Shown here piece by piece: positions 7,883-61,000 of a DNA stretch of 64,000 nt. The notes beneath the pieces were generated by a model, which saw nothing but the letters and a program-made list of their open reading frames with translations, did not search any database and was not told the origin of the DNA. The DNA comes from Minisyncoccota bacterium. GTDB taxonomy: Bacteria; Patescibacteriota; Minisyncoccia; Phycocordibacterales; UBA1006. Where the stretch lies: assembly GCA_021209525.1 (NCBI GenBank), contig JAJOIF010000006.1, forward strand, positions 14,115 to 78,114, written 5' to 3'. Position 1 is the first letter of the stretch, and each line of letters begins with the position of its first letter. The translations under genes were made by a program, and so were the position numbers.

Positions 7883-7896
7883 ATATACTTCATTAT

Positions 7897-8397: not shown

Positions 8398-8399
8398 TT

Positions 8400-8732
8400 A
8401 TGACTATTAACTTACAACAATTACAAAAAGATGTATATCAAAACAAACTTGACAAAGGGTTTAATACCACTGATGTCGCGCTTGAATTTTGTCGCGCTCA
8501 CGAAGAGTTGTCTGAAGCATTTAAAAAACACAATCTTGGTGAAGATGGTGTGGGCGAAGAACTCGCTGATGTGGCAATTTTTCTCTTGGGAATGGCAGAG
8601 ATACTCGGTTTTAATTTAGAGGCAGAGCTTGTACGTAAAATTGAAATTAACAAAAAACGCGTCTATAAAAAAGTTATTAATGCCGATGGTAAAGAGGTGC
8701 TTATTCGTGTTAAAACCGATATTGATCCATAA
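8400..8732 (+). CDS. MazG-like nucleotide pyrophosphohydrolase
   Basis: MazG-domain EEL/E motifs (AHEELSEAFKK ... EELADVAIFLLGMAE). Confidence 0.7.
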   Translation: MTINLQQLQKDVYQNKLDKGFNTTDVALEFCRAHEELSEAFKKHNLGEDGVGEELADVAIFLLGMAEILGFNLEAELVRKIEINKKRVYKKVINADGKEVLIRVKTDIDP

Positions 8733-8733
8733 T

Positions 8734-8758
8734 AAAAACCCTCACACGAGGGTTTTTT
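8734..8758. terminator. bidirectional rho-independent terminator (aaaaaccctcacacgagggtttttt)
   Basis: Hairpin flanked by A-run and T-run between convergent mazG-like and thyA. Confidence 0.8.
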
Positions 8759-8762
8759 ACTA

Positions 8763-9728
8763 TTACACTGCAATAGGTGCTTTGATAGCAGGGTGAGGAT
8801 TATAATCCTCAATACTGATATCATCAAAGGCAAAGTCTTCAAAATTCTTTACTTCTGGGTTCAGTACCAATCGTGGCATAGGGCGCGGGTCACGAGATAA
8901 TTGTTCGCGGGCTTGCTCGAGGTGATTACTGTACAGGTGAATATCACCACCTGTCCAGATAAAGTCACCTACTTCATGATCAGTTACGTGCGCAATCATT
9001 GCAGTCAAGAGTGCATATGATGCAATGTTAAAGGGAACACCCAGGAAAAAGTCAGCGCTTCGTTGGTAGAGCTGGCAAGAAAGCTTTCTCTTTTGAGTAC
9101 CTGGGATTGGTTCTGAATAAAATTGAAAGAGTGCGTGACATGGAGGAAGTCCAGATTTCTGCATTTCTTCAATTTGCCCAACATTCCATGCGGAAACAAT
9201 ATTTCTCCGAGAGTCAGGATTCTTCTTGAGTGTTTCAATAACTTGAGAAACTTGATCGATGTGTTCACCTGTAGGTGTTGGCCATGAGCGCCACTGATAT
9301 CCATACACGGGACCTAATTCGCCATACTGTTTTGCAAAATCAGGGTCTGTTGCAATTTTTTCTTCATATGCTGCGAGTAAGGCATTCCATGCATCACTAT
9401 TGGTTTCAGGAATAGCTTGATCGGTATCTTTCAAATATGCCTTGAAAGGCCATTCACTCCAAATACCGACTTTGTTTTGTATCAAGTATTCAATATTAGT
9501 GCTTCCTTGCAAGAACCAAATGAGCTCATGAGTAATAGAGCGCATAAATACTTTTTTGGTGGTGAGGAGCGGAAAACCTTGTGACAAGTCAAAACGCATT
9601 TGATGTCCAAAGACACTGCGCGTACCTGTTCCTGTGCGGTCGCCTTTGTCGACACCGTGATCAAGAATATGTTGCATTAATGAAAGGTATTCCTGGTCTG
9701 CATGTGAATGTGATGAATATGATTGCAT
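8763..9728 (-). CDS. thyA: thymidylate synthase (long form with ~50-aa insert)
   Basis: TS motifs [43 protein letters not shown]. Confidence 0.95.
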
Positions 9729-10312
9729 AGGAGTAGATTTTAGATAATGAATAAAAAGGACTTTATTTTATTATAGGGTAAGAAAGGAGAGAGGGCAAGG
9801 ATTGTTTGTATTGTAAAAAAATGTATTCATGCTATGCTATGTAAAAAATATGAACTATGAAAAAAATACATACAACGGAAGAATTTACTGATTTCCTAGA
9901 AAGAGGCAGATTCACCAAGGATGACCTGCTATACTGGGTTAAAAAAATTAAAAGCCTATTTAAGCGCCTCCTGCATTAGTTTGCAGGAGTTTTTTTCTTA
10001 CTCCGTCTGACATGGTAACCTATCTATATCTAATTGTACTGTGTCTTTAGAAGAATGAATGACACTTTTTTATTTTTTAAACCGCGCGTGTTTTATACAT
10101 GAGTCAAAATACGTATATTATTTTTTTTAAATCATTTTCAAGGGTTTTTCTTTTTTAGAGTAAAGGTCTATGGATTATGCACGCTGCAATGTTACAGAAA
10201 CATTATGAGTGCTTGACAATAAAACATAAATATGCTAATATATAAATGATTCGAAATCTATGCACGATGCATAGATGGGATGATCGATCATTCACAATAA
10301 AATATATACGTC

Positions 10313-10957
10313 ATGACAAAAGTCGCAGACAAAACCTTAGCACAGTATGTTAAGTTCCAACACGATATGTTGGAGAGAGTCCTTAAAGGATCAGTTGACC
10401 CGATTGCATTAATGAACGCACAACGTCCATTAATCGGTCAAAAGGCTAATCCTTACCTCAGATTAATCTCAGGAGGTGAAACCGTAACGATTTCTACCTG
10501 CAAGGGTGGGAAGAATGCAAACATCTATCACGCCAAGAAAACATTTCCTGGATACATAGATCCTGATTTCAATAATTGCGGAATCAACCTACCTCAACCA
10601 GCAACCGAGAAAACTGATGTTGATGTATACGAAATGTATAACAAAAACGCAGATTTCAGAACATTGTTTGGTTCATTGAGTTCAGACCTAAAAAGTCTTG
10701 CTTTTGAATCTCAAGAGCAGATTGAAACTTTCTGTAAAGAAAACAAGCAGTGGTTACGCACAGACGGTTACGGAACTTTCTTCCTATTTACTGAAGAGGT
10801 AGATGGTGAAGAAAAATTCTTCATTGCGGACGTGGGCTTCAGCTCTGGTGGGCTGATGGTGTACGTGTTCCACTTGTCGAGTGACCGCGTGTGGGCTGCG
10901 AGCGCTGCCCATCGCATTGTGGTACCTGCTACAAAAACCTCGGATACTCAGAACTAG
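10313..10957 (+). CDS. hypothetical protein
   Basis: No family recognised. Lies in a 1.5-kb mostly non-coding gap in the thymidylate cluster; ATG 9 nt after a TAAAAT box. Confidence 0.5.
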   Translation: MTKVADKTLAQYVKFQHDMLERVLKGSVDPIALMNAQRPLIGQKANPYLRLISGGETVTISTCKGGKNANIYHAKKTFPGYIDPDFNNCGINLPQPATEKTDVDVYEMYNKNADFRTLFGSLSSDLKSLAFESQEQIETFCKENKQWLRTDGYGTFFLFTEEVDGEEKFFIADVGFSSGGLMVYVFHLSSDRVWAASAAHRIVVPATKTSDTQN

Positions 10958-11193
10958 ATTCTTAGATCCTTAATACCTTAGACCCTTTCTTTCAAAGAAG
11001 GGTCTTTTTTATTACTCCATCCATCTATGGTCTCGTCCTTGGCACGCTGAGTATCGTTAATCCCATATAACGCGTGCTAACAAGCCGGAGGTGGAGATTT
11101 TTGGGATTTGATGCTCAGGATTTGCTTGCGATGTGGAATTTTTAGCTTGTAATTTTATCATCTTATTGCATCACTCACGATTCAATAGTAAAT

Positions 11194-11230
11194 ATTTGCC
11201 TCACGTTCCTTTTTCCCCTATACTTACCCT
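11194..11230 (+). promoter_or_regulatory. promoter cassette: -35 TTGCCT, 17-nt spacer, -10 TATACT, then 7 nt, abutting the glyA ATG (leaderless)
   Basis: Seen directly; a near-identical 37-bp copy lies upstream of dut at 13912-13948. Confidence 0.55.
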
Positions 11231-12490
11231 ATGTCATATATTAAAGAACAAGATCTTGAAATATATCAAGCAATCCAAGGTGAAGAAAAACGCCAGCGAG
11301 AAGGACTTGAACTCATTCCGTCAGAAAATTATGTATCACGCGCTGTGCTTGAGGCTAATGGCTCAGTATTTACCAATAAATATTCAGAAGGGTATCCAGG
11401 GCGACGTTACTATGGTGGTCAAGAATATACAGATATTATTGAGCAAGTAGCAATAGATCGTGCATGCCAGTTATTCGGTGCCCGTTTTGCAAATGTGCAA
11501 CCACTCTCTGGTGCTCCTGCAAATCTTGCGCTCTATGCAGCACTTTTGGAGCCAGGAGATACGGTGCTTGGTATGGATTTGTCACATGGTGGACACTTGA
11601 CCCATGGACACCCGGTTACTTTCCCTGCAAAGATTTTTAACTTTGTGCGTTATGGCATGAAAAATATCGAGACAGGAGAAATTGACTATGAGGCACTTCG
11701 TGAAGTCGCTCTCCGTGAACAGCCAAAAATTATTCTCGCTGGTTTTTCTGCATATTCTCGTGAATTAGATTACAAAAAATTTGTAGACATTGCCCGCGAA
11801 GTAGGCGCCATTACTGTTGCTGACGTAGCCCATATTGCAGGGCTTATTGCAGGCAAGGCGCTCCGCAATCCATTTGATGATGGTTTTGATATTATGACCA
11901 CCACGACACATAAAACATTACGCGGCCCTCGTGGAGGTATGATTCTCGTGCGCGAAGACGAAGAACTTTTTAAAAAAATCAATAAGGCAGTTTTCCCTGG
12001 GCTGCAAGGCGGCCCCCATATGAATCATATAGCAGCCAAAGCTGTTGCATTTGGTGAAGCGCTCGATCCTTCTTTTCAAAAGTATGCTGCGCAGGTTATT
12101 AAAAATGCAGCTGCGATGGCAGACGTTTTTCACCATGAAGGTATTCGCATGATAGGTGGAGGAACATCAAATCACCTTATCTTGGCTGATGTATATGGGT
12201 CATTAGGTATTACAGGAAAAGAAGCTCAAACACTATTAGATGAAGTAGGAATCACGCTCAATATGAATAGCATTCCTGATGATGAACGCAAACCACTTGA
12301 TCCTTCAGGGATTCGTTTTGGTACACCAGCCATAACTACGCGTGGTTTTACTGAAAAAGAATGCGCGCGTGTGGCAGAGCTCATGATTGCTCTCTTGCGC
12401 AATAAAGATAATGCAGAACTCAAAGAGAGTATTACAGAAGAAGTACGTAATCTCGCAACCACATTTCCTGTGCCAGAGAGGTTTATCTAA
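11231..12490 (+). CDS. glyA: serine hydroxymethyltransferase
   Basis: SHMT motifs LIPSENYVSRAV, PLP-site TTTTHKTLRGPRGGMI. Confidence 0.95.
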   Translation: MSYIKEQDLEIYQAIQGEEKRQREGLELIPSENYVSRAVLEANGSVFTNKYSEGYPGRRYYGGQEYTDIIEQVAIDRACQLFGARFANVQPLSGAPANLALYAALLEPGDTVLGMDLSHGGHLTHGHPVTFPAKIFNFVRYGMKNIETGEIDYEALREVALREQPKIILAGFSAYSRELDYKKFVDIAREVGAITVADVAHIAGLIAGKALRNPFDDGFDIMTTTTHKTLRGPRGGMILVREDEELFKKINKAVFPGLQGGPHMNHIAAKAVAFGEALDPSFQKYAAQVIKNAAAMADVFHHEGIRMIGGGTSNHLILADVYGSLGITGKEAQTLLDEVGITLNMNSIPDDERKPLDPSGIRFGTPAITTRGFTEKECARVAELMIALLRNKDNAELKESITEEVRNLATTFPVPERFI

Positions 12491-12498
12491 GTCGTGCT

Positions 12499-12891
12499 AT
12501 GAAAATTGTTATTACACATGCAACCACATTTCCTTTTGAGCAAGAGCTCTATGCTCCACTGATGGCTGCTGATTTTTTTTCCGAACATGAATTTCTCTTG
12601 CCACAGCGCACGGGACTTGCGCAACAAATTACCGAAGATATGATTCGCACAGCAGATGTGGTCATTTGCGAAGTGTCATTACCTTCAACAGGGCAAGGGA
12701 TTGAAATAGGGTGGGCGACCGCACATAAAACACCTTGTGTGTGTATACACAAAAAAGACGCTCATATTTCAGGTGCACTACAGTATGTGTGCGATGTTAT
12801 TATTCCATATAGAGATACGCAGGATATGGTAGAGCAGGTGAGGAGGGTGTGTGGGGCAAGCACCAAGCACCAAACTCCAAATAACAAGTAA
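12499..12891 (+). CDS. nucleoside 2-deoxyribosyltransferase / DNPH1-like protein (putative)
   Basis: Short flavodoxin-like layout with ADVVICEVS...GQGIEIGWA resembling the NDT/Rcl fold; context is a thymidylate cluster. The last ~11 codons overlap a repeat-element TIR. Confidence 0.4.
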   Translation: MKIVITHATTFPFEQELYAPLMAADFFSEHEFLLPQRTGLAQQITEDMIRTADVVICEVSLPSTGQGIEIGWATAHKTPCVCIHKKDAHISGALQYVCDVIIPYRDTQDMVEQVRRVCGASTKHQTPNNK

Positions 12892-13139
12892 CCACCTCTT
12901 CTCCCTTCGTCCGCCGTAGCCTTGGCGAAGGCGGAGTGTTTCTTGTAAATGAGCTATTGGCATACGTACCACAAAGTCTGTAAGCGGTACCACAGCCGCG
13001 AGATCCCGGAATTTGTTCGCATGCTCACAAATTCCGGGAATGAGTGGTTGTTCGTATTTTCCGGGAAGGAGTGGTTATTTGTAATTTGCCTGCCTCGTTA
13101 TACGGGGTTGTATCTTGTTATTTGGCGCTTGGTGCTTAT
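12857..13139. mobile_element. MITE-like non-autonomous element (~283 bp) bounded by ~30-bp imperfect terminal inverted repeats (CAAGCACCAAGCACCAAA..AAATAACAAG)
   Basis: Left TIR 12857-12893 and right TIR 13105-13139 are reverse complements. Interior carries AATTCCGGGAA(T/G)GAGTGGTT direct repeats and the CCGTAGCCTTGGCGAAGGCGGAG module shared with other copies. Confidence 0.6.
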
Positions 13140-13185
13140 AACTTACATTCTACAAAAACAACCATATACATGCTATACTAAATCC

Positions 13186-13881
13186 ATGCAAGGAAAACTC
13201 ATAGTTATTGACGGCACCGATGGATCAGGCAAAGCAACACAGGTCGCCCACCTCAAAGAGCGATTAGTTGCCGAAGGGTATCAAGTCGCATCGCTTGATT
13301 TTCCACGATACGAAGACAACTTTTTTGGATCATTTATTGGTGAATGTTTGCGTGGTGATCATGGTGATTGGGCAGGACTCAGTCCACGTATCGCATCTGT
13401 GGTATATGCCGCCGATCGTTTTGAATCTGCAGAAACTATTCGCGCATGGCTCGCTGAGGGCAGGGTAGTCATCTTGGATCGCTATGTTTCTTCTAATCAA
13501 ATTCATCAAGGAGGTAAAATTACTGAGACCCATGAGCGCAAGGCATTTCTCACATGGCTCGATACTATGGAGCATGACATTTTTAAAATACCGAGACCAG
13601 ATATTATTATATATCTTGATGTACCACTTGCGGTGAGTCAGGCATTACTTTCCCAAAAAAATACACAAGATACCAAGACATATCTCGCTGGCAAAAAAGA
13701 TCAGCATGAAAATGACCTCGAACATCTCACTGCTGCCAAAGAAGCAGGACTTGCCCTTATTGCAGAAATGAATAATTGGCATCGTATTAACTGTGCACCT
13801 GAGGGCGAGCTTTTGTCTATAGAAGAGGTGCATGAGATGGTGTACGGGGTGTTAAGTGAAGGAGGGTATCTTGTCTCTTAG
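13186..13881 (+). CDS. tmk: thymidylate kinase
   Basis: P-loop IVIDGTDGSGKATQ, DRY motif (VILDRYVSSN). Internal ATG 13186 chosen; upstream part of the track ORF is repeat-element sequence. Confidence 0.9.
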   Translation: MQGKLIVIDGTDGSGKATQVAHLKERLVAEGYQVASLDFPRYEDNFFGSFIGECLRGDHGDWAGLSPRIASVVYAADRFESAETIRAWLAEGRVVILDRYVSSNQIHQGGKITETHERKAFLTWLDTMEHDIFKIPRPDIIIYLDVPLAVSQALLSQKNTQDTKTYLAGKKDQHENDLEHLTAAKEAGLALIAEMNNWHRINCAPEGELLSIEEVHEMVYGVLSEGGYLVS

Positions 13882-13911
13882 AAGTTACTTGTCCCGACCA
13901 GCGGAGCTCTC

Positions 13912-13948
13912 ATTTGCCTCACGCTTCTTTTTCCCCTATACTTACCCT
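13912..13948 (+). promoter_or_regulatory. promoter cassette (TTGCCT-17-TATACT-7-ATG) abutting the dut start; near-identical to the glyA copy
   Basis: 35 of 37 nt identical to 11194-11230. Confidence 0.55.
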
Positions 13949-14371
13949 ATGAAATTTCTTATCAAAAAATTACATCCTGATGCAAAGATGCCCACCTATG
14001 CCCATACTACTGATGCTGGCTTAGATATGTATGCATGCGAACGCGTCATTGTGCCGCCACATGGTCGCATGCGTATATATCACGGCTTTGCGCTCCTTAT
14101 TCCTCCGGGATATGCAGGCATTGTCAAAGACAAGAGTTCTGTGAGCAATGCGGGACTGCACCAAATTGGTGGCGTATTTGATGCGGGCTTTACTGGTGAA
14201 TATAATACACAGCTTGTTAATCTCACTGATACTGAATATGTTTTTGAAAAAGGCGACAAAGTCTCTCAGCTCGTCATTATTCCAATTGCGCAACCAGAAT
14301 TTGAGCATGTTGAGGTATTTCCTGAAACTGAAAGAGGGGAGGGTTCTTTTGGTTCAACGGGTAAGCAATAA
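13949..14371 (+). CDS. dut: dUTP diphosphatase
   Basis: dUTPase motifs AGLDMYA, RSS-like KSSVSN, GVFDAGFTGE; internal ATG 13949. Confidence 0.9.
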   Translation: MKFLIKKLHPDAKMPTYAHTTDAGLDMYACERVIVPPHGRMRIYHGFALLIPPGYAGIVKDKSSVSNAGLHQIGGVFDAGFTGEYNTQLVNLTDTEYVFEKGDKVSQLVIIPIAQPEFEHVEVFPETERGEGSFGSTGKQ

Positions 14372-14410
14372 TCATTGGCATAATGTATTTTTTTATGTAG
14401 TATAGTGATT

Positions 14411-16108
14411 ATGTATATTCATCATACCTTACAACGCTACATTGCGACAGCGCTCCGTGATTTTGATGTGCGTGAGCACGACATACACCTCGAGCATCCA
14501 GCTGATTTCATGCACGGCGATTATGCAATCAATAGCGCACTCATATATGCACGTAATAGAGGTATTGCTCCGCGCGAACTCGCTGAACAATTTGTACAAG
14601 AACTTACCAAAGATATGCCGGCATATCTTGAGCGTATTGAAATTGCAGGTCCTGGATTTATTAACCTTTTCCTCGCGCGTCCTTTTTTGCAATCAACCCT
14701 CGCTGATATTATTGCAGACAGTGTGCATTATGGACGCGGATCATTGCTCTCGGGCAAGCGCGTGCTCATTGAACACTCGAGCCCTAATCTCTTCAAGCCA
14801 TTTCATATTGGGCATATGATGAATAATGCTATTGGTGAATCATTAGTGCGCACTGCTGAATATGTAGGCGGCGATGTTATTGCGCTCTCGTATCCATCAG
14901 ATATTTCCCTCGGTATTGGCAAGGCAATTTGGTTTCTCTTGAGTAATGGTGGCAAGGAGGCACTTGCTGAGCGGGCGACACTCCATGAACAAATACTCTT
15001 GCTCGGTTCATGTTATGTGCAAGGAGTACGCGCATTTGATGACACGCCAGAGATTCAATCTGATGTCCGCGAAATTACGCGTCAGATTTTTGAACAAGAA
15101 CCAACTCCCGCATATGAGCTCTATACGCTCTGCAAGCAATTAAACATTGATTACTTTATTGCCATCACCAAGAGACTCGGTTCTCATTTCGCTGATTTTA
15201 TTTTTGAAAGTGAAGCAGGTGTGAGAGGGCAAGACATGGTACGCGCACATACACCGAGTGTCTTTCGGGTAAGTAATGGTGCACATATTTACGAAGGCGA
15301 ACAAGATGGGCTCCATACGCGTGTTTTCATTAATGCCGAAGGATATCCTACGTATGAAGCCAAAGATATTGGTCTTCTGGCCATAAAGTTTGAACGCTAT
15401 CAGCCTGATATTTCAGTACTCATTACCGACCATGAACAAAAAGAATACTATAAAGTCGTTTTAGCAGCTGCTGGAAATATTGCACCGGTGTGGCGTGATT
15501 GTTCTGTTCATGTGACACATGGACGCATGACGCTCCTTGGTCAAAAAATGTCATCACGCTTGGGCGGTGTACCAACAGCGGTTGAGCTGCTTGATACATT
15601 ACGCAGCGATGTATATGAAAAAAATACTGACGCATCAGATGATCTCGCTGATGCTATTGCACTTGCAGCAATAAAATTTACCATCCTCAAAACACAAGCA
15701 GGTAAAAATATTAATTTTGATCCTGATCAATCACTTTCTTTTGAAGGTGATTCTGGTCCATATCTACAATATACACATGCGCGCATTCAATCACTCCTCA
15801 CCAAAGGAGAGGGGATGGGTATACATCCGCGTATTGATGGAGCATTAAGCGAAGAAGTATTGCTCGAGCGTATGCTCTATAGATTTCCGCACATACTTGA
15901 GCGTGTCATTAAAGATTATTCGCCGCACCATCTCGCACACTATGCGTTGGAGGTAGCACGCGTCTTTAATAGTTGGTATGGTGGTACAAAAATTCTTGAC
16001 CCTGAAAATCCTCACGCTCCGTATTATCTTGGCTTGGCTCAAGCGACAGGTATTATTCTTGAGCGCAGTTTATACCTTTTAGGTATTCACGCACCAGAGA
16101 GGATGTAA
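14411..16108 (+). CDS. argS: arginine--tRNA ligase
   Basis: Class I HIGH motif (PFHIGHMMNNAIGE), DALR anticodon-binding C-terminus. ATG 14411 (7 nt after a TAGTAT box) preferred over GTG 14405. Confidence 0.9.
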   Translation: MYIHHTLQRYIATALRDFDVREHDIHLEHPADFMHGDYAINSALIYARNRGIAPRELAEQFVQELTKDMPAYLERIEIAGPGFINLFLARPFLQSTLADIIADSVHYGRGSLLSGKRVLIEHSSPNLFKPFHIGHMMNNAIGESLVRTAEYVGGDVIALSYPSDISLGIGKAIWFLLSNGGKEALAERATLHEQILLLGSCYVQGVRAFDDTPEIQSDVREITRQIFEQEPTPAYELYTLCKQLNIDYFIAITKRLGSHFADFIFESEAGVRGQDMVRAHTPSVFRVSNGAHIYEGEQDGLHTRVFINAEGYPTYEAKDIGLLAIKFERYQPDISVLITDHEQKEYYKVVLAAAGNIAPVWRDCSVHVTHGRMTLLGQKMSSRLGGVPTAVELLDTLRSDVYEKNTDASDDLADAIALAAIKFTILKTQAGKNINFDPDQSLSFEGDSGPYLQYTHARIQSLLTKGEGMGIHPRIDGALSEEVLLERMLYRFPHILERVIKDYSPHHLAHYALEVARVFNSWYGGTKILDPENPHAPYYLGLAQATGIILERSLYLLGIHAPERM

Positions 16109-26977: not shown

Positions 26978-27245
26978 AAAAGAAGACACACAAAAACCAC
27001 TCATATGAGTGGTTTTTGTGTGTATGATCTATATATGATTTGCAAAGAGTATTTTTCTGTGATAGTATGTATATACAACTGAATATGATTATAAAGATGT
27101 AGCAAGAGTACTGGCTCTATGACCTACAGGCAACCCTCATTATGAGAAGGTGCCCCATCCAGCCAACACAGTAATGTGTATGGAAAGATAAGAATAGTCC
27201 TTCTGTCTTTCTCATTATTATGAGATTTTTTTTATTATATTTTCT

Positions 27246-28199
27246 ATGAAATATAGAACTGCTGAATGTGTTTCGCCTATGCATCCTGACAAAATATGTG
27301 ATCGCATAGCCGACGCGCTTCTTGACGCATATCTTGCTCAAGACCCAGAGAGTCGTATTGCTCTTGAGGTTATGGGTGGACACGGGTCCTTGATTATTAA
27401 TGGAGAGGTAACCTCTACTGCACAGGTCGATATTGAAAAAGTTGCTCGTACATATATCGATAAAGATACTACCATTATTTCGCATATTGTTCCTCAAAGC
27501 ACAGAAATTGCGCGTGGCGTAGATGATGGCGGGGCTGGAGATCAAGGTATTATGGTGGGGTACGCAACCGCAGAAACACCAGAGCTTTTGCCTTTAGAAT
27601 ATGTGCTTGCTCGTTCACTCTGTCAAGCGGTATACGAAGTGTATCCATATGACGGCAAAACACAAGTCACTATAATAGACGGACGAGTCGCTACGGTTGT
27701 GGTAAGTTTTCAAAATGCGCCTCATGATGCGCTCTATGCACTGGTACGCAATCATATAGACGCAGATGAGTATATTATTAATCCTGCAGGGGATTGGTCG
27801 CTCGGCGGTTTTGATGCGGACACAGGACTGTCGGGGCGCAAAATAGTTGTTGATCATTATGGGCCACATATTCCTGTCGGGGGAGGATCATTTTCGGGTA
27901 AGGATTACACTAAAGTAGATCGTTCTGGTGCTTATATGGCTCGTCGCATTGCATGCGATTTACTTGAACAGCACCACGCTCAAGAGGTGTACGTATACCT
28001 TGTATATGCTATAGGCAAAAAAGATCCGATTATGGCTCGCGCAATAATAGATGGTACAGAGTGTGCTATTACTGGATATCATCTTGCTCCACGAGACATT
28101 GCTCAATCGCTTTCATTAAAAACATGTTCTTTTTTAGAGACGGCTTCCTGGGGACATTTTGGAAGAGGTTTTCAGTGGGATGCTCCGCAACATTCATAA
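27246..28199 (+). CDS. metK: S-adenosylmethionine synthetase (unusually short, 317 aa)
   Basis: MetK motifs HPDKICDRIADALLDAY, GAGDQGIMVGYA, GGGSFSGKDYTKVDRSGAYMARRIA. Confidence 0.85.
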   Translation: MKYRTAECVSPMHPDKICDRIADALLDAYLAQDPESRIALEVMGGHGSLIINGEVTSTAQVDIEKVARTYIDKDTTIISHIVPQSTEIARGVDDGGAGDQGIMVGYATAETPELLPLEYVLARSLCQAVYEVYPYDGKTQVTIIDGRVATVVVSFQNAPHDALYALVRNHIDADEYIINPAGDWSLGGFDADTGLSGRKIVVDHYGPHIPVGGGSFSGKDYTKVDRSGAYMARRIACDLLEQHHAQEVYVYLVYAIGKKDPIMARAIIDGTECAITGYHLAPRDIAQSLSLKTCSFLETASWGHFGRGFQWDAPQHS

Positions 28200-51097: not shown

Positions 51098-51861
51098 ATG
51101 ATTATTCTTTTTATTGGTGTACTTATATATATGACACTAGGATACGCTCTTGCGCAAATAGTGCGTCGCAATGATATTGCAGATACTTTATGGGGTATTG
51201 GTTTTGTTCTATTGTCATGGGGTGCGGTATATCTTTCAGGGAATACATCGTGGGATATGATCGTGCTTGCAAGTATGGTGACGCTATGGGGTGTGCGTCT
51301 CGCTCTGCATATTGGTTCTCGATCATGGGGTAAGGGTGAAGATTTTCGTTACCATGCATGGCGTCAGTCATGGATGCTTCGTGGTGTGTGGTACTATCGT
51401 ATCCGCGCATATGCGCAAGTATTTTTACTGCAGGTGTGCTCATGTATCTCATCGCAAGTCCATTTCTTATGTATGCATATGTGCGCACATCGGCAATGAT
51501 GTGGGCGATGGTGATAGGAGTCTGTATGTGGAGTATCGGATTCTTTTTTGAAGCGATTGGAGATTTTCAGTTGCGTGTATTTTTGAAAAACAAAAACGCA
51601 TCTATTATGACGACGGGGTTATGGAGTCTCACGCGACACCCTAATTATTTTGGAGAAATTATGATGTGGTGGGGTATAGGTATCTACACGCTCACTGCTC
51701 AATTGCCACTATCACTCATTGCGCTCATTGGCCCCTTGCTCATTACGTATTTACTCCTCTATGTGTCAGGTATTCCGCTCCTTGAAGAAAAATGGCGCGA
51801 CCATCCAGAGTTCCAAGCATATGCACAAAAAACACCAGCACTCTTTCCAAAGATTTTTTAA
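51098..51861 (+). pseudogene. DUF1295 (steroid-5-alpha-reductase/ICMT-like, RHPNYFG motif) membrane protein gene split by a 1-nt frameshift near 51420-51435
   Basis: ORFs 51098-51499 and 51358-51861 overlap in two frames and join into one DUF1295-like protein (..RIRAYAQVFLLQ / AGVLMYLIASPF..LTRHPNYFGEIMMWWGIGI..) across a T5 run. Confidence 0.65.
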
Positions 51862-52214: not shown

Positions 52215-52294
52215 AACATACTAAAAGTATACAGAATCGCCTCAGACTGAGGTGGTTTTGTATTGGCGCTTTGTTTTATGATATAGTACTACAT

Positions 52295-52774
52295 ATGCGT
52301 ATACATCTTGCAACAGATCATGCTGGTTTTGAACTCAAAGAACACATCAAAAATCATCTCATAACACATGGGTATGAGGTTATTGATCATGGTGCAACTG
52401 CGTATGATGCGCAGGACGACTTTACGGTGTATGTTGAACGAGCAATGCGATCCATTACTGGTGACGACAGAGGTATTATTTTGGGAGGCTCAGGGCAAGG
52501 AGAAGCTATGCTCGCAAATCGTTTCTCACACATTCGTGCGGGCGTGTACTATGGCGCAGCGGGTACGCAAATTGATGCGTCTGGCGCAGAAATTGATATG
52601 ATAGCATCACTTCGTGAGCACAATGATTGCAATGTTTTGTCTCTCGGGGCGCGTTTTGTAGACCCTGAGCATGTAGGCGCTGTCATTGATACATGGCTCG
52701 CTCTGCCTTTTTCTGGTGCAGAGCGTCATGTGCGTCGCATTCAAGCAATAACCAAAGATTTCTCACAAAACTAA
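52295..52774 (+). CDS. rpiB: ribose-5-phosphate isomerase B
   Basis: RpiB/LacAB motifs MRIHLATDHAGFELKE, ILGGSGQGEAMLANR. Confidence 0.85.
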   Translation: MRIHLATDHAGFELKEHIKNHLITHGYEVIDHGATAYDAQDDFTVYVERAMRSITGDDRGIILGGSGQGEAMLANRFSHIRAGVYYGAAGTQIDASGAEIDMIASLREHNDCNVLSLGARFVDPEHVGAVIDTWLALPFSGAERHVRRIQAITKDFSQN

Positions 52775-52775
52775 T

Positions 52776-53048
52776 ATGAACTGGTACGCTGATATTGACG
52801 AAACAACACAAAGAGAGACCGATGCGGTTACGGATCGTATTTTAGATGAATGGCCGTGGACACAGCATCCAGGGTCGCACATGCAGCGAGAAATGAAAAA
52901 ACTCCAAGACATGTATATTACTATTCGTACGCAACGAGACGCGTCCGTAGACACCGAAGAGCGCGCACACTTACAAGAACAGTGTATGGTGCTTCACAAA
53001 AAAATCAAAGAAATGCAACAAAAATTTTTACAAGAATATTATTCATAG
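52776..53048 (+). CDS. hypothetical protein
   Basis: ORF only, tightly packed between rpiB and rpe. Confidence 0.4.
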   Translation: MNWYADIDETTQRETDAVTDRILDEWPWTQHPGSHMQREMKKLQDMYITIRTQRDASVDTEERAHLQEQCMVLHKKIKEMQQKFLQEYYS

Positions 53049-53059
53049 ATTATCTTTTT

Positions 53060-53764
53060 ATGTCTGACATTATTCCTGCGCTCATGCCGCGCACCTACAC
53101 ACAATTAGAAGAACTCGTCGATGCTGTTGCCGGATACGCACCAGTAGTGCAATTTGATATTATGGACGGTCATTTTGTTACAGGCAAAACATGGCCTTTT
53201 GGCGACATGGAAAGCGAAGAATTTCTCGCCATTGTTCGTGAGCAAGAAGATTTACCGCATGCTGATGCATGTGCATATGAGCTTGATCTCATGGTGCATG
53301 AGCCTGGGGAATATATTAGTCAATGGCAAGCTATGAAACCAGCAAGTATTGTGCTCCATCTTGAGAGTATGCACGACCCAGTAGAAACACTCTTTCTCTT
53401 TCAGCGCTTGCGCGAACATACTGCTATCGGCCTTTCTTTTTCTCGTGATATACGCCCCCAAGATATCTTTGCATATCTTCCGTCTATTGATTTCATTCAA
53501 TGTATGGGTATTGCACATATTGGCAAACAAGGTGAACCTTTTGACGAAACAGTGCTTGAGCAAATAGAAGCATTTCACAAACAGTATCCATCGCTTCCTA
53601 TTTCTGTTGATGGTGCTGTCAGTAGAGAAACATTACCGCGCCTTATAGCTGCAGGTGCGCGCCGGCTCGTGGTAGGGTCAGGTATTTTTGCACACCCTGA
53701 ACCAGTGCATGCATTCATGGAATTGCGTGACCAAGCCACTGCTTTTTCTTTGGGAGGGAATTAA
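53060..53764 (+). CDS. rpe: ribulose-phosphate 3-epimerase
   Basis: TIM-barrel Rpe motifs FDIMDGHFV, LDLMVHEP, SVDGAV..VVGSGIF. Confidence 0.8.
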   Translation: MSDIIPALMPRTYTQLEELVDAVAGYAPVVQFDIMDGHFVTGKTWPFGDMESEEFLAIVREQEDLPHADACAYELDLMVHEPGEYISQWQAMKPASIVLHLESMHDPVETLFLFQRLREHTAIGLSFSRDIRPQDIFAYLPSIDFIQCMGIAHIGKQGEPFDETVLEQIEAFHKQYPSLPISVDGAVSRETLPRLIAAGARRLVVGSGIFAHPEPVHAFMELRDQATAFSLGGN

Positions 53765-53783
53765 TGTGTGGTATACTTATTCT

Positions 53784-54644
53784 ATGCAACTTACCGAAAA
53801 ACAAAAACGTAATCTTGAATTACAAGCCATCGAAGTACGTCAAAGTATTATTGATATGCTCGAAGACGCAGGAAGCGGTCACACTGCTGGGTCTCTCGAT
53901 ATGGCAGATATTTTCACTGCTCTGTATTTTCATGTCGCCAAACATGATCCCAAGAATCCTGAATGGCCAGAGCGTGATCGCATCATTCTTTCAAATGGAC
54001 ACATTGTGCCGGTGCGCTATGCAACGATGGCACATGCTGGGTACTTTCCTATCCAAGAACTAAAAACGCTCCGTACTTTCGGATCTCGCCTCCAAGGACA
54101 TCCAGAACGAACACACTTACCAGGACTTGAAACAACATCAGGACCTCTTGGTTCTGGATTATCTCAAGCTGCAGGGATGGCATATGCTGCAAAAATGGAC
54201 AAGCGTAACCACCACATATTTTGCCTTATGTCTGACGGAGAAATGCAGGCAGGAAATATTTGGGAAGCAGCTATGTTTGCACATGCGCATGCTCTCGATA
54301 ATCTTATCGGTATTGTGGATCGTAATTATATTCAGATTAATGGACGCACCGAAGACGTAATGCCGATCGAGCCTTTTGCAGAAAAGTGGGAATCATTCGG
54401 ATGGCGCGTTATTGAAATCAATGGGCATCGCATGGATGCTATTGTTGAAGCGTGCGAAGCGGCCAAAGCACATACGGGCTCTCCTGTGGTAATTATTGCA
54501 CATACAATTCCGGGCAAGGGCGTGCCTGAAATTGAATTTGATCATGAGTGGCACGGCAAAGCGCCTTCCCAAGAACAACAAGATCGCTGGCTCAAAGATT
54601 TGCGCACACTCAAGGGTAAGATGAGTGCGAGTCACTATGAATAG
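53784..54644 (+). CDS. tktA: transketolase, N-terminal (TPP-binding) subunit
   Basis: SGHTAGSLDMADIF, GHPE, GPLGSGLSQAAGMA, SDGEMQAGNIWEA. Confidence 0.85.
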   Translation: MQLTEKQKRNLELQAIEVRQSIIDMLEDAGSGHTAGSLDMADIFTALYFHVAKHDPKNPEWPERDRIILSNGHIVPVRYATMAHAGYFPIQELKTLRTFGSRLQGHPERTHLPGLETTSGPLGSGLSQAAGMAYAAKMDKRNHHIFCLMSDGEMQAGNIWEAAMFAHAHALDNLIGIVDRNYIQINGRTEDVMPIEPFAEKWESFGWRVIEINGHRMDAIVEACEAAKAHTGSPVVIIAHTIPGKGVPEIEFDHEWHGKAPSQEQQDRWLKDLRTLKGKMSASHYE

Positions 54645-55203
54645 TATGAATCTCTCACGTACATACAAAAAAATAAAAAAGTATGTCGCTACGTACGAGT
54701 ACATAAAATACGCAGTATTAGTGGGAGGAATTATTGTCGCTGTGACGCTCTTGATTATTATGCGTGCGCAGATGAGTGTCTCACAAGCACGCATATTTAC
54801 AAAAAATGAAGTATATACAATTGGGTGGGATAGAGGGCGGGCAATGGAGTTGCGTTTTTGTAAAAAAGAAATGCATCGCGAAAAAATACTCTATGCATTT
54901 GTGCCAAGCGCGTCTTCATGTCTGGTTTCTGATTCAGAATATGTGTATATAAGTAACAGAGAATTACTTGCGCGTCTGGAATCACCCCAAGACATTCTTG
55001 ATTTTCTTGAAATAAATAAAACACATGGAGTAGCGCTGAGTGCATACCCGCAACCACTCCCGAGCGGGCACGTATACATGATTACACCACGCAGTAGTTC
55101 AGCATTTGATCTCCTTCGGGAATATCAGACGCACGGTATCTTTTCCCGTATTCAATTATTTACCCATACATCAGACACATTATCCTACGCTATAACCCAC
55201 TAA
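54625..55203 (+). CDS. membrane-anchored hypothetical protein inserted between the transketolase subunit genes
   Basis: TM helix (YAVLVGGIIVAVTLLII); no family recognised. Confidence 0.4.
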   Translation: MRVTMNSMNLSRTYKKIKKYVATYEYIKYAVLVGGIIVAVTLLIIMRAQMSVSQARIFTKNEVYTIGWDRGRAMELRFCKKEMHREKILYAFVPSASSCLVSDSEYVYISNRELLARLESPQDILDFLEINKTHGVALSAYPQPLPSGHVYMITPRSSSAFDLLREYQTHGIFSRIQLFTHTSDTLSYAITH

Positions 55204-55260
55204 TGATATATGCTTAATCCACAATTATATCTTCATACAGATACATTGCAAGGTGGCGAT

Positions 55261-56202
55261 ATGCCGCGCAAACCTTCACGTGATGGTTTTGGTAAGGGGC
55301 TCGTAGAGCTCGGCAAACGAGATGATCGTGTTGTCGCGCTTTGTGCCGACCTCGCCGAGTCAACACGCATGCTTGAATTTAAAACCATATTTCCAGATCG
55401 TTATGTAGAACTCGGTGTTGCTGAGCAAAATCTCGCCGCAGTTGCCTCAGGTATGGCTGCTGCGGGCAAGATTCCATTTATTGCTAGTTATGCAAGTTTT
55501 TCACCAGGGCGCAATAATGAACAAATTCGTACCACTATTGCACTTAATCATATGCCGGTCAAGATTATTGGAAGCCATGCCGGATTGTCTGTAGGTCCTG
55601 ACGGTGCTACCCATCAAGCGCTCGAAGATGTAGGACTCATGCGCATGCTTCCGCACATGACAGTGGTGCAACCATGTGATGCTGAGCAAGCACGCCTTGC
55701 AACAGAAGCACTCCTTGATGTAGATGGTCCTGCGTATGTGCGTCTCAGTCGTGCAGCGTTTCCTGTATTCACGACAGCAGAAACTCCATTTGAAATAGGT
55801 AAAGCTCAAGAAATGTATGTGACCGAAAATCCTCAGGCGGGTATTATTGCAACAGGGGCGCTTGTGCATACAGCATTACTTGCCGCTCACTCATTACGCG
55901 CCGAAGGTATCGAGGTGTCGGTGATGAATATTCACACCATTAAACCCCTTGATATTCCTGCAGTAGTCGCACTAGCAAAGCGTGCCGGTGCGCTCATTAC
56001 ATGCGAAGAACATCAAGTAGCCGGCGGGCTCGGATCGCTCATTGCGGAAACAGTAGCGGCGCACCACCCTGTACCTATGGAATACATTGGGGTGCATGAT
56101 CAATTTGGTCAATCAGGAGAACCTGATGAGCTCATGAAACATTATGGCCTCGATGTTTCAGATATTGTGCGTGCAGTAAAGAAGGTGATAGAGAGAAAAT
56201 AA
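55261..56202 (+). CDS. tktB: transketolase, C-terminal (pyrimidine-binding) subunit
   Basis: RDGFGKGL, ELGVAEQN, HAGLSVGPDGATHQALEDV. Confidence 0.85.
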   Translation: MPRKPSRDGFGKGLVELGKRDDRVVALCADLAESTRMLEFKTIFPDRYVELGVAEQNLAAVASGMAAAGKIPFIASYASFSPGRNNEQIRTTIALNHMPVKIIGSHAGLSVGPDGATHQALEDVGLMRMLPHMTVVQPCDAEQARLATEALLDVDGPAYVRLSRAAFPVFTTAETPFEIGKAQEMYVTENPQAGIIATGALVHTALLAAHSLRAEGIEVSVMNIHTIKPLDIPAVVALAKRAGALITCEEHQVAGGLGSLIAETVAAHHPVPMEYIGVHDQFGQSGEPDELMKHYGLDVSDIVRAVKKVIERK

Positions 56203-57077: not shown

Positions 57078-57547
57078 AAGGCAGCCCTTTCTTTGCACAC
57101 TCATTCTGAATACTATTATTAATCATTAGTATATAGAATTAAATGAATAAAGGAGCGAAAGCGACTATTATGAATTTATGCAAAGCAAGCGTACGGCAAA
57201 GAAAGGATATCGGGTTTCAGCAGAGATCAAACAACAAATTATCAGTAGAATTAAGACGGTGTTTTTTATGGATAATCCTTGCCTTGATGACTCATATGAC
57301 GTATGATAGTTCGTATGAGCGTTTGAGAGGCTATCATCCTCGAGCTTTGGGAAGAACGTGCAGATTTCTGCATCAGTAGAACCTGACGGTGTCTTGCGTC
57401 CGTTATCGCACAAAGAAGTGTTCTTGGATATTCTTGTCCAAGAAAAACAAGGTGGTACCGCGGGGAAACTCGTCCTTGTAGAGCGCAATGCGCTGTATCA
57501 AGGGCGAGTTTTTTTATTTTTTCTTTATCAGTAATACGTATACTTGT

Positions 57548-60500
57548 ATGTCTATGTCACCAGAATCACTTACCAAAAAATCATCATATGCCGAGCGCGA
57601 AGAGCGTATTCTCGCATTTTGGGAAGATCAAAAAATTTTTCAAAAAACACTTACCAAAAAAGCTCCTTTGGGCGATTTTATATTTTATGAAGGACCGCCT
57701 ACCGCTAATGGGCGGCCAGGTATTCATCACCTTGCATCTCGTGCCTTCAAAGATGCTTTTCCTCGCTACAAAACAATGCGAGGATATTATGTGCGCCGCA
57801 AAGGAGGATGGGATACGCACGGTCTTCCGGTGGAGCTTGAGGTTGAAAAACAACTTGGCCTTGCCTCTAAAAAAGACATTGAATCATATGGCATTGAGGC
57901 ATTTAATCATGCATGTCGTCAGTCAGTATGGACATACCTTAATGAATGGCAAGATTTCACCAAGCGTATTGGGTACTGGCTTGATATGGATCATCCGTAT
58001 ATTACTTATGATGAAAAATATGTAGAATCGCTCTGGTGGGTAATGAAGCAAATTGCTGATAAAAATCTCCTCTACAAAGACTACAAAATTGTGCCATGGT
58101 GCCCTCGTTGTGGTACAGGACTCTCAAGTCATGAACTTGCCCAAGGATATGCTGATGTCAAAGATATTTCTATTATTGCAAAATTCAAAGTCAGCAATCA
58201 CACGTATGATCGTGATACCTATATTCTCGCATGGACAACAACACCATGGACATTACCAGGCAATGTCGCCCTTGCTGTTGGTGCATCTATTACCTATGCG
58301 CGCATTTTGTGTGATGGTGTATATTATGTAGTCGCTCAGGATCTTGTGACCAAAGTATTCCATGGTCGCGAATATGCCGTTGTAGATACATGTATGGGAG
58401 ATGATTTGGCGGGGATGACTTATGAACCACTTTTCCCGTACATGCAATACGCACATGCGCGTGAGCCTATTCCTCATATGGAAAATGCATATGCTGTATA
58501 TGCTGCAGATTTTGTCACTACCGGAGATGGTACAGGGGTGGTGCACACAGCGGTTATGTATGGTCAAGACGACTTTGAATTAGGAAACAAGGTTTCTTTG
58601 CCTAAATTTCACATCATTCATCCAGATGGTGCATTCAAAGAAGATATGGGTGTACTCTCTGGTCGCTTTATCAAAGAAATGATAGATGGCAAACCGACAC
58701 TTGATATTGATATTATCAAACATCTCCAAGAAACCGACACTTTTTTTGCAAAAGAAAAATACGACCACAATTATCCGCATTGTTGGCGCTGTAAAACACC
58801 ACTCGTGTATTATGCGCGAGATTCGTGGTACATCAATATGCAAGATGTCAAAGCCGATCTCATTGCAGAGAATCAATCTATTGCATGGCATCCAGAATAT
58901 GTAGGGCAAGGGCGTTTTGGTGAATGGCTCCAAGAGCTCAAAGACTGGGCTATTTCTCGTGAGCGCTACTGGGGTACACCATTACCGCTCTGGCAATCAC
59001 CAGATGGCGACATGTGGGCTGTTGGTGGTTTTGATGACATCTACCGCCACGCAGAACCATCAGTACTTACCAAAATGATAATCATGCGCCACGCAGAAAG
59101 TGAAAAAAACATAGCTGATGTGTGGGATGCATCTGACGACACGTACCCGCTCACTGCAACAGGGCGCGCTCAAGCACAAGCATGTGCTCAGAAACTGAAA
59201 GATGCAGGTATTGATATTATTGTGGCTTCGCCAGTGCGTCGCACACGAGAAACCGCAGAAATTATTGCGCGCGAAATTGGTGCAACTATGCACATAGAAG
59301 AAGCCTTGCGCGAAATTGATTCGGGTAATTGGGAAGGAAAAACATATGCCGAAGTCAAAGAGAGTCGTGATGCATATAATGCGCTTGATTCAGATGCATT
59401 TCATCACGCAATTCGCGGAGATCATGGCGAGAGTTGGCAAACATTTGATGAGCGTGTGAGTGCGTGGTATCGTGATGTGTGTACGCGTTATGCAGGCAAA
59501 ACTATTTTAGTAGTGAGCCACTTTGCAAATCTTGTATATATTTTCAAGAATTATAAAAATATTTCTCACACCGAAGCATCGCGACTATTCACCAAGCCTG
59601 ATTTTGGTGTATATGTAGTACCAACAACACTCTATATTGATCAGCGCACAGGGTATGCTTTTGACCCGCATCGTCCATTTGTAGATACCATCACCCTTGC
59701 TCGCGAAGGAAAAACATATACGCGTGTGCCAGAAGTCATCGATGTGTGGTTTGACTCGGGTGCTATGCCTTTTGCGCAAGATCATTACATGGGCGAAGGT
59801 AGCTTTAGTTATCCTGCAGATGTCATTGCCGAAGGAATGGATCAAACCCGTGGGTGGTTCTACACCTTGCACGCTATTGGAAACTTGCTTGGATATGGCA
59901 AGGCATATAAAAATGTCATCAGTCTGGGGCTTATTAATGATGCGCAAGGACAAAAAATGTCAAAGTCAAAAGGGAATACCGTCAATCCATGGGATGCCAT
60001 GAATACGTTTGGAGTAGATACCATCCGTTTTTGGATGTATTCAGTGAGCGGCCCTGGTGATGCAAAGAGTTTTGATGAAAAGACAATTCTTGAAACACAA
60101 CGCAAAGTATTTGGTCTCCTTGATAATGTGGTTCATTTTTACGAATTATATCGTGCTTCGTATGATGCATCATATATTCCTCAAGAATCTCCGCATATTC
60201 TCGATCAGTGGATCCTCGCGCGACTTCATTATGTTGTAGCGACTATGACGCATCACATGGATGCATATCGCATCCTTGAATCAACACGGCTCGTGCGTGA
60301 CTTTATTGCAGATCTCTCGCAATGGTATATTCGCCGCAGTCGTGACCGCTTCAAAGAAACAGGTCGTGATATGTACTTTGCTTTGGCGACAACCCAGTAT
60401 GTACTCGATACACTTGCAAGGCTTATGGCACCTTTTGCACCATTCTTTGCCGAAGATATGTACCAACGTATTGAAGGTGCAGAAATATCAGTGCATATGG

Positions 60501-61000
60501 CATCGTGGCCTACTGAAAAACCATATGACCAAGAAGTACTCAAAGACATGGATCGTGTTCGCACACTCATTTCTGAGGCACTTGAATTACGCGCCCAAGC
60601 AAAAATAAAAGTGCGTCAACCACTGCAAGTACTTACCCTTACAGGAGATCCTCTTGATGAGACATACGAAGCACTCATCAAAGACGAAGTAAATGTCAAA
60701 GATATTGCTTATGGTGACACGAATGCACTTGATACGACGATTACTGATGCCTTACGCGCTGAAGGAGATGTGCGCGAATTGGTTAGACATATTCAAAATC
60801 TACGCAAAGACAAGGGGTTGCATCCAGATGATCGCATTCATGTAGTTATTGATACTGATGATGCGGGCAAGGTATTTTTTGATACGCACGCTGCAACGAT
60901 TCAAGGGCTTACTAATATTGCTACGTACGCTTTTGGATCCATCGCTGGCGATGCAATAGAAGTGACACATGGGGTATATCGTATAGGTATTACAGAATAA
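57548..61000 (+). CDS. ileS: isoleucine--tRNA ligase with an in-frame ~190-aa histidine-phosphatase (PGM-like) domain insertion
   Basis: HIGH-region PTANGRPGIHH, editing domain TTPWTLPGN, WISRERYWGTP, DVWFDSG, KMSKS (QKMSKSKGN). Inserted block carries RHAESEKN, SPVRRTRETAEII, EIDSGNWEG, VVSHFANL. Start may be the second ATG at 57554. Confidence 0.85.
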   Translation: MSMSPESLTKKSSYAEREERILAFWEDQKIFQKTLTKKAPLGDFIFYEGPPTANGRPGIHHLASRAFKDAFPRYKTMRGYYVRRKGGWDTHGLPVELEVEKQLGLASKKDIESYGIEAFNHACRQSVWTYLNEWQDFTKRIGYWLDMDHPYITYDEKYVESLWWVMKQIADKNLLYKDYKIVPWCPRCGTGLSSHELAQGYADVKDISIIAKFKVSNHTYDRDTYILAWTTTPWTLPGNVALAVGASITYARILCDGVYYVVAQDLVTKVFHGREYAVVDTCMGDDLAGMTYEPLFPYMQYAHAREPIPHMENAYAVYAADFVTTGDGTGVVHTAVMYGQDDFELGNKVSLPKFHIIHPDGAFKEDMGVLSGRFIKEMIDGKPTLDIDIIKHLQETDTFFAKEKYDHNYPHCWRCKTPLVYYARDSWYINMQDVKADLIAENQSIAWHPEYVGQGRFGEWLQELKDWAISRERYWGTPLPLWQSPDGDMWAVGGFDDIYRHAEPSVLTKMIIMRHAESEKNIADVWDASDDTYPLTATGRAQAQACAQKLKDAGIDIIVASPVRRTRETAEIIAREIGATMHIEEALREIDSGNWEGKTYAEVKESRDAYNALDSDAFHHAIRGDHGESWQTFDERVSAWYRDVCTRYAGKTILVVSHFANLVYIFKNYKNISHTEASRLFTKPDFGVYVVPTTLYIDQRTGYAFDPHRPFVDTITLAREGKTYTRVPEVIDVWFDSGAMPFAQDHYMGEGSFSYPADVIAEGMDQTRGWFYTLHAIGNLLGYGKAYKNVISLGLINDAQGQKMSKSKGNTVNPWDAMNTFGVDTIRFWMYSVSGPGDAKSFDEKTILETQRKVFGLLDNVVHFYELYRASYDASYIPQESPHILDQWILARLHYVVATMTHHMDAYRILESTRLVRDFIADLSQWYIRRSRDRFKETGRDMYFALATTQYVLDTLARLMAPFAPFFAEDMYQRIEGAEISVHMASWPTEKPYDQEVLKDMDRVRTLISEALELRAQAKIKVRQPLQVLTLTGDPLDETYEALIKDEVNVKDIAYGDTNALDTTITDALRAEGDVRELVRHIQNLRKDKGLHPDDRIHVVIDTDDAGKVFFDTHAATIQGLTNIATYAFGSIAGDAIEVTHGVYRIGITE

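Follow-up and report, generated by a model that had tools for sequence, protein, structure and literature searches.

To our knowledge, catalytic domains beyond the editing domain are rare in bacterial aminoacyl-tRNA synthetases (aaRS), although aaRS with accessory or nested domains are a known kind of protein. A precedent for a bacterial isoleucyl-tRNA synthetase (IleRS) that hosts an unrelated enzyme is the NF040702 family, in which the added domain is an N-acetyltransferase (GNAT). Histidine-phosphatase (HP) domains are likewise known as promiscuous fusion partners: the RNase H/acid phosphatase proteins (Rv2228c/RnhC type, PRK07238) and MutT1-HP join a phosphatase end to end to a nucleic-acid enzyme, with a physiological substrate that is not established, whereas PhoE (1h2e/1ebb), CobC (6nru, 6e4b, 3hjg), PspA (4ij5) and the riboflavin-pathway HFP (9mmh) are free-standing. 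In 6-phosphofructo-2-kinase/fructose-2,6-bisphosphatase both activities act on one metabolite pair. Within IleRS, the structurally most variable part is the connective-peptide subdomain CP3 (PMC7191050), whose published boundaries are residues 473–534 in CaIleRS and 459–526 in ScIleRS and whose topology varies among the Candida, Thermus and Staphylococcus enzymes (PMC7191050, PMC7955072). The gene described here, ileS of a Minisyncoccota bacterium (assembly GCA_021209525.1, contig JAJOIF010000006.1, positions 14,115 to 78,114, a stretch of 64,000 nucleotides hereafter called the window), encodes a type-2 IleRS (IleRS2) with a complete HP domain nested in its CP3. Unlike the end-to-end fusions, this phosphatase is an internal loop insertion in another enzyme; unlike the NF040702 proteins it carries HP and not GNAT, and it is not a member of that family (313 against a cutoff of 1999); and, unlike the bifunctional fructose enzyme, no substrate shared by the two activities is evident.

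The ileS gene (57548–61000, forward strand) is an uninterrupted open reading frame (ORF) of 1150 aa, the product of which is assigned to type-2 IleRS by TIGR00392, by its structural relatives and by an AlphaFold2 (AF2) model. Pfam places His_Phos_1 (PF00300) between two tRNA-synt_1 stretches, followed by Anticodon_1 and DUF5915 in the C-terminal part, and the ileS equivalog model TIGR00392 matches with 839.9 bits (cutoff 621.4) in two stretches split by the insert. The initial annotation had read this ORF as IleS at both ends with an in-frame domain insertion rather than a neighbouring gene, and this stands: one stop-free frame covers all of it, with the IleS profile on both flanks and His_Phos_1 at aa 511–679 (E = 5.1e-41). 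The AF2 model of the full protein is confident (mean predicted local distance difference test, pLDDT, 92.3; predicted template modelling score, pTM, 0.85) and has the overall fold and type-2 C-terminal architecture of an IleRS. The best solved relatives of the synthetase are Priestia megaterium IleRS2 (8c8w/8c8u) and Thermus thermophilus IleRS (1ile). An identical protein is present in NCBI (P0001 in our set) with its start two codons downstream, under the label 'class I tRNA ligase family protein [Candidatus Pacebacteria bacterium]'.

The branch-1 HP insert occupies aa 507–699 (59066–59644, forward strand), about 193 aa, where the P. megaterium and T. thermophilus enzymes have a loop of ~10–25 aa; the net gain relative to IleRS2 structures is ~195–204 aa. 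Residues 11–485 and 704–1054 of the protein align to residues 7–460 and 485–848 of 8c8w, and removal in silico of aa 510–692 gives a contiguous alignment to residues 419–568 of 1ile (E = 1e-41) with a small gap left. Upstream of the insert lies the N-terminal half of CP3, a beta-hairpin and a short helix, with the linker to the phosphatase (58988–59065, forward strand, from the alignment to T. thermophilus IleRS and the AF2 model, which has strands at 481–483 and 489–491 and a helix at 495–501). Downstream, the C-terminal half of CP3 (FDPHRPFVD and a beta-hairpin; 59645–59728, forward strand, from the same alignment) returns to the Rossmann fold at PEVIDVWFDSG. Both linkers are nearly constant in length over 121 sequences: the spacing from W482 to R514 has a median of 30 residues (standard deviation 2.9) and that from H658 to H708 a median of 51 (standard deviation 2.7). 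The GC content of the insert (0.42–0.49) is the same as that of its flanks. On these alignments the insertion site is a surface loop within CP3; the earlier description of a fusion inside the catalytic core thus holds as far as the body of IleS is concerned, and not for the core proper. The zinc-knuckle cysteines of T. thermophilus CP3 (CxxC…CxC) are lost in the window protein (aa 484 and 719; nt 58997–58999 and 59702–59704). Cysteine is kept at the corresponding CP3 positions in 34 of 121 relatives, which points to variable zinc binding within the clade.

The full motif set of branch-1 histidine phosphatases was found where the initial annotation had quoted it, within 59070–59635 (aa 508–696). 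Against a PF00300 cutoff of 21.7, the whole protein scores 140.9 bits and the excised segment 145.3, and the motifs are MIIMRHAESEKN (R514/H515), SPVRRTRET (R565), EIDSGNWEG (E589) and VSHFA (H658). The predicted phosphate-binding arginine and nucleophilic histidine, R514–H515 (59087–59092), the predicted phosphate-binding R565 of the SPxxR motif (59240–59242) and the predicted second active-site histidine, H658 (59519–59521), all on the forward strand, are conserved in 121 of 121 sequences, so that the catalytic residues of the RHG, SPxxR and H type, the lack of which had been named as grounds for giving up the phosphatase assignment, are in place. E589 of the E.D.G.WEG motif (59312–59314, forward strand), the predicted general acid/base, is glutamate in 119 sequences and aspartate in two; R636 is invariant (121/121) and N521 is kept in 116 of 121. 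The RHG motif reads RHA in the window protein, with glycine in 114 of the 121 relatives. The alpha/beta fold of the superfamily is present in the AF2 model, in which a strand at 507–514 precedes R514–H515. The insert is at the same time the fastest-evolving region of the protein (mean pairwise identity 0.34, compared with 0.67–0.69 in the catalytic halves, 0.59 in the editing domain and 0.48 in the C-terminal domains), and its substrate cap region is variable (30% identity). Since invariant catalytic residues stand in the fastest-evolving domain, purifying selection is, by this comparison, concentrated on the active site.

The nearest solved sequences to the insert are CobC 6nru, PspA 4ij5 and PhoE 1ebb/1h2e (E ~1e-14), and PhoE, CobC, PspA and HFP are 19–28% identical to it. 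Among the NCBIfam models the highest score goes to the HP half of an RNase H/acid-phosphatase fusion (116 bits against a family cutoff of 326). The models of the cofactor-dependent phosphoglycerate mutases (dPGM) remain below their cutoffs: TIGR01258 scores 29.3 against 81.7 and matches the first ~70 residues only, NF010713 (PRK14115-type) 26.1 against 305 and NF038349 (dPGM_arch) 82 against 225. The equivalog cutoffs of CobC (TIGR03162, 104.7 against 162.9) and PspA (NF045917, 84.1 against 350) are not reached either. Because all named subfamily scores lie below the curated cutoffs, the insert is classified by these profiles as a member of the superfamily that belongs to no characterised subfamily, and since every one of these cutoffs failed, no substrate can be transferred to it from known enzymes. 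In dPGM a C-terminal tail caps the active site. Here the chain exits the HP fold after the strand at 693–698 and re-enters CP3 at FDPHRP (aa 705–710), so that a tail of this type would have no room. Judged by similarity, the insert is nearer to small phosphatases of the CobC/PhoE/PspA type than to phosphoglycerate mutases; of the earlier wording 'phosphoglycerate-mutase-like', the superfamily is kept and the mutase is not.

The synthetase that surrounds the phosphatase has the class I signature motifs and the CP1 editing motif, all of them invariant or nearly so in 115 CPR (Candidate Phyla Radiation) homologues. The first signature is the swapped form GIHH (GXHH, not HXGH; aa 58–61, 57719–57730, forward strand, in the sequence PGIHHL), with P57, H60 and H61 invariant. 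This variant of the IleRS2 signature is documented, and tied to mupirocin hyper-resistance, in Brkic et al., 2023 (PMC10485003). It appears to be carried naturally by the whole CPR clade. The models of the mupirocin-resistance enzymes MupA and MupB (NF000257/NF000258) give 746–750 bits on the window protein against a cutoff of 1900. The editing motif WTTTPWTLPGN (aa 229–239, 58232–58264, forward strand) and the KMSKS loop (aa 803–807, 59954–59968, forward strand, in QKMSKSKGN; K803, M804 and K806 invariant) are intact.

Upstream of ileS lies a T-box leader whose Stem I is ultra-short, plus an intrinsic terminator (57313–57525, forward strand), recognised by RF00230, by its core sequence and by the terminator. 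RF00230 matches at 57313–57480 over its full length (model positions 1–219) with 56.7 bits (E = 1.4e-11). It falls short of the gathering score (93) because 7 nt stand in place of 78 model positions of Stem I; automatic annotation would thus miss the element. The invariant T-box core GGUGGUACCGCG is present, and a terminator helix, ACUCGUCCUUG/CAAGGGCGAGU, with a U-tract at 57469–57523 forms a terminator/antiterminator switch; the minimum free energy of folding of the leader has a z-score of −4.7. The 7-nt Stem I loop, CUAUCAU, contains the isoleucine codon AUC followed by A, an isoleucine specifier. In L083, the closest relative, ileS is preceded by the same leader (2794–2953, 64.2 bits, loop UUAUCAC), and L084 has a weaker match (2753–2940). 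A search ahead of the ileS genes of L003, L006, L082 and L012 gave no T-box, so that the leader is confined to the close relatives of the window. The leader supports ileS as a genuine, charging-regulated IleRS. With the GXHH signature, the intact editing site, the KMSKS loop and the isoleucine-specific T-box taken together, the best explanation is that the product is the organism's working type-2 IleRS, and its phosphatase would be co-induced whenever tRNA(Ile) is uncharged.

The architecture is widespread in CPR bacteria, in the Parcubacteria/Paceibacteria as well as the Peregrinibacteria/Peribacteria. A homologue search of 5.8 billion proteins was carried out and the best 120 matches were taken (from NCBI, ENA, JGI and Logan assemblies; 48–100% identity). 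PF00300 occurs together with the IleS domains in all 120, among them proteins named as Pacebacteria, Paceibacterota, Taylorbacteria, Vogelbacteria and Parcubacteria; the same insertion, which the initial annotation had suggested looking for in ileS of related genomes, is present there. The identical protein was recovered on two contigs, and orthologues of 66–67% identity and more than 100 others share the architecture. Among the GTDB loci compared, L001–L009, L011 and L013 have an HP-bearing ileS; the species representatives belong to Yanofskybacteria, Spechtbacterales, Paceibacteria, Minisyncoccia, Peregrinibacteria and Peribacteria (NCBI phyla Minisyncoccota and Peregrinibacteriota). In these loci the HP domain is found in IleRS only, the other aaRS genes being without it. 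When the insert alone was used as the query of a HMMER search, at least 30 of the 150 best representatives of 50%-identity clusters were embedded in an IleRS, and the free-standing ones in this set were proteins of ~200 aa and two-domain HP-HP proteins of ~410 aa (28–43% identity). The initial annotation knew of no phosphatase-bearing aaRS, and none was found here: neither literature searches nor papers on IleRS evolution nor a 2026 survey of domain insertions yielded a described IleRS or other aaRS with an HP domain. The architecture is already visible, unremarked, in public protein databases through the automatic annotation of PF00300.

Some other proteins and one relative deserve mention here. 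Among the 150 best HP representatives there are domains of similar score fused to other partners, as NACHT-HEAT-HP (P0209, 1123 aa), UPF0004-HP (P0213, with the MiaB-like N-terminal domain) and RNase H-HP (P0211 and P0230). PHROGs contains a phage HP family that matches (phrog_12933, E = 2e-24, uncharacterised). In an HP-bearing Peregrinibacteria IleS (L008), a single in-frame TAG at 6562–6564 interrupts the zinc-knuckle region of the CP-core; sequencing error, pseudogene and recoded stop are the possible explanations.

Copy number of the domain also varies. Some IleRS of the Peribacteria type, 1380–1490 aa long, carry two tandem HP domains (for example at 5887–10302 of L013), and one truncated protein has at least four. 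In the multi-copy variants (among them P0124, P0129, P0142, P0174, P0274 and P0121), R514–H515 is present in every copy and the R-H-N-R-E-R-H signature is kept in nearly every full-length copy, the exceptions being N521A in one copy of P0121 and R636Q in one copy of P0138. Paralogous first and second copies share an identity of ~0.28, far less than orthologous copies (up to 71–79%), and the duplication is therefore old by this measure, with both copies kept intact. Two variants, P0137 and P0274, which by their hidden Markov model (HMM) matches look like three-copy proteins, have two copies, the first of which is split by an extra loop.

Most of the proteins recovered in a second homologue search, for which the HP-less IleS of a Patescibacterium (L012) served as the seed, were CPR IleRS2 that lack HP (Kerfeldbacteria, Komeilibacteria, Nomurabacteria and others); seven HP-bearing proteins were interspersed among them. 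In a neighbour-joining (NJ) tree of 105 IleRS cores from which the HP regions had been removed, HP is present in all deep CPR branches; one large sub-clade consists mainly of HP-less enzymes, and its HP-bearing tips stand as close sisters to them. Four pairs of HP-bearing and HP-less sisters have 100% bootstrap and 0.75–0.83 core identity. In one of them (P0379 and P0370, 82% core identity) the alignment shows a single 204-aa gap at the CP3 site, between GSR.EL..K and EI[DN]LHRP. Since close HP-less sisters differ by such clean excision, the cassette is dispensable for aminoacylation; on these alignments the phosphatase is not integral to that reaction, and the IleRS works with or without it. 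In Fitch parsimony the CPR root is reconstructed as 'present' in 89% of bootstraps, and the ancestor of the CPR IleRS2 clade probably had the cassette already, with repeated losses thereafter. Against this history it must be said that the trees are NJ trees only, that CPR monophyly has 53% bootstrap, and that free parsimony requires 9–12 state changes, possibly with re-gains, while a loss-only scenario needs 17–26. A single minor secondary loss, suggested by a small tree, was dropped, HP-less CPR IleRS being abundant in the larger search and tree. HP and core distances are weakly correlated (Spearman 0.15), with HP identities saturated at ~35–40%.

The reading that we favour, with a probability of roughly 60%, is that the polypeptide would be bifunctional: a normal IleRS2 and an autonomous, active phosphomonoesterase on a small substrate. 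According to the standard chemistry of the superfamily, H515 would attack the substrate phosphate to give a phospho-histidine intermediate, R514, R565 and H658 would hold the phosphate, and E589 would protonate the leaving group and then activate a water molecule. The probable substrate class is a small phosphorylated metabolite. The phosphatase would then be an accessory enzyme that shares the IleRS polypeptide and its T-box-controlled expression, in a fixed 1:1 (or n:1) stoichiometry with IleRS, and that stands outside aminoacylation. Three points weigh against this reading. Activity and substrate are deduced from conserved residues; the constant linkers (standard deviation below 3 residues) and the pTM of 0.85 suggest a fixed orientation and possibly functional coupling; and the fast evolution, the copy-number variation and the patchy loss would also fit a role in conflict or immunity instead of one in housekeeping metabolism.

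These last points lead to the alternative that survives best, although it seems unlikely: a phosphatase coupled in cis to the synthetase, acting on a translation-linked phospho-substrate as a built-in repair or immunity module. Candidate substrates would be the 3'-phosphorylated or pyrophosphorylated CCA end of tRNA (toxSAS/CapRel-type) or an IleRS residue phosphorylated by a kinase toxin, so that tRNA would become chargeable or the enzyme active again, and pyrophosphorylation of tRNA at its 3'-CCA end is indeed known to block aminoacylation in bacteria and phage defence (10.1101/2021.04.30.441581, PMC11559606, PMC9712102). The rigid linker lengths are consistent with coupling, as is a conflict-like mode of evolution in which the fastest-evolving region keeps an invariant active site, occurs in two or at least four copies and is recurrently lost. 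The variable cap (30% identity) would be acceptable in an enzyme whose binding energy came from the IleRS body, and the best NCBIfam match and other relatives are fused to nucleic-acid enzymes (RNase H, MutT1). On the other hand, structural papers on IleRS (including PMC7191050 and PMC7955072) describe no tRNA contact by CP3, and IleRS is the only aaRS of these loci to have the domain. The surface of the HP domain shows little conservation, an argument against a conserved interface with a macromolecule, and PADLOC gave a chance-level match only, with no relation to known defence proteins. We also know of no enzyme of the histidine-phosphatase superfamily that dephosphorylates tRNA 3' ends, and this counts against coupling. 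The initial annotation had proposed coupling through alarmones, Ap4A or tRNA ends, for which no support was obtained, HP-less sisters of up to 83% identity being functional. In its most specific form, which we hold to be more doubtful again, the nested phosphatase would be a cis-acting repair or immunity module, fixed in its orientation on CP3, that strips from the tRNA 3' end or from IleRS the phosphate or pyrophosphate put there by toxins or phage-defence enzymes; an arms race would then explain the fast evolution, the copy amplification and the gain and loss between close relatives, and the protein would be the first aaRS with a built-in phosphatase checkpoint.

Less probable still is that the insert represents the missing glycolytic dPGM of the lineage, or another essential phosphatase such as phosphoserine phosphatase, fused during genome reduction. 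Phosphoglycerate mutase has been reported as undetectable in some Parcubacteria (PMC7304191), and it is this that prompts the idea. The dPGM, PspA and CobC models nevertheless all fall below their cutoffs, an insert of only ~193 aa has no C-terminal dPGM-type tail, a sole essential glycolytic enzyme would not be expected to be lost as cleanly in close relatives as the cassette is, and the amplification to 2–4 copies is left unexplained. Finally, two further readings of the insert, as an artefact of assembly or of a frameshift and as a structural spacer without catalytic activity, are effectively refuted, despite the origin of the sequence from a metagenome-assembled genome and the RHA of the window copy in place of RHG, by the identical protein on two contigs, by more than 100 other proteins from independent assemblies with the same architecture (which also rule out an assembly chimera, together with uniform GC across the junctions), by uniform composition and the lack of stops, by the invariant catalytic residues and by the confidently predicted fold.

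No partner gene is conserved beside ileS in the loci compared, the neighbours being housekeeping genes (superoxide dismutase, recO, DUF11/CLIPPER, argS, other aaRS and pentose-phosphate genes). A stand-alone phosphoglycerate mutase or a second HP gene was not found within the window, nor was an HP gene found beside ileS in the HP-less relatives. Several other loci of the window, all the coordinates of which refer to the forward strand where a strand is given, were also observed. Transketolase is split into an N-terminal gene (53688–54644, forward) and a C-terminal gene (55210–56202, forward), with a 192-aa ORF lacking a Pfam match between the halves (54625–55203), and adjoins rpiB (52271–52774) and rpe (52850–53764). 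DUF1295, a steroid-reductase/methyltransferase-like membrane protein, is represented by two overlapping ORFs (51098–51499 and 51358–51861, forward), of which one matches the N-terminal and the other the C-terminal half of the Pfam model, likely a frameshift or an assembly error. A SAM-I riboswitch (27086–27194, forward), whose 56.8 bits exceed the gathering score, immediately precedes metK (27246–28199, forward), which is unusually short (317 aa). A dense nucleotide-salvage and thymidylate cluster next to argS (7394–16108) contains genes for dihydrofolate reductase, dCMP deaminase, thyA, serine hydroxymethyltransferase, a nucleoside deoxyribosyltransferase-like protein, tmk and dUTPase, and is typical of a salvage-dependent CPR organism.

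A second and apparently active enzyme, of an unrelated superfamily, is thus retained within IleRS over a very large radiation of bacteria that are uncultured and have reduced genomes. The HP insert accounts for the bare label 'class I tRNA ligase family protein' that many such proteins carry in NCBI, and a predicted phosphatase activity that is hidden in a housekeeping gene has been missed by metabolic reconstructions of CPR bacteria. As a natural and precisely bounded domain insertion that is tolerated in CP3, the cassette may also be useful for aaRS engineering. If the activity were to prove connected with tRNA or the synthetase, charging would be under a new layer of control.

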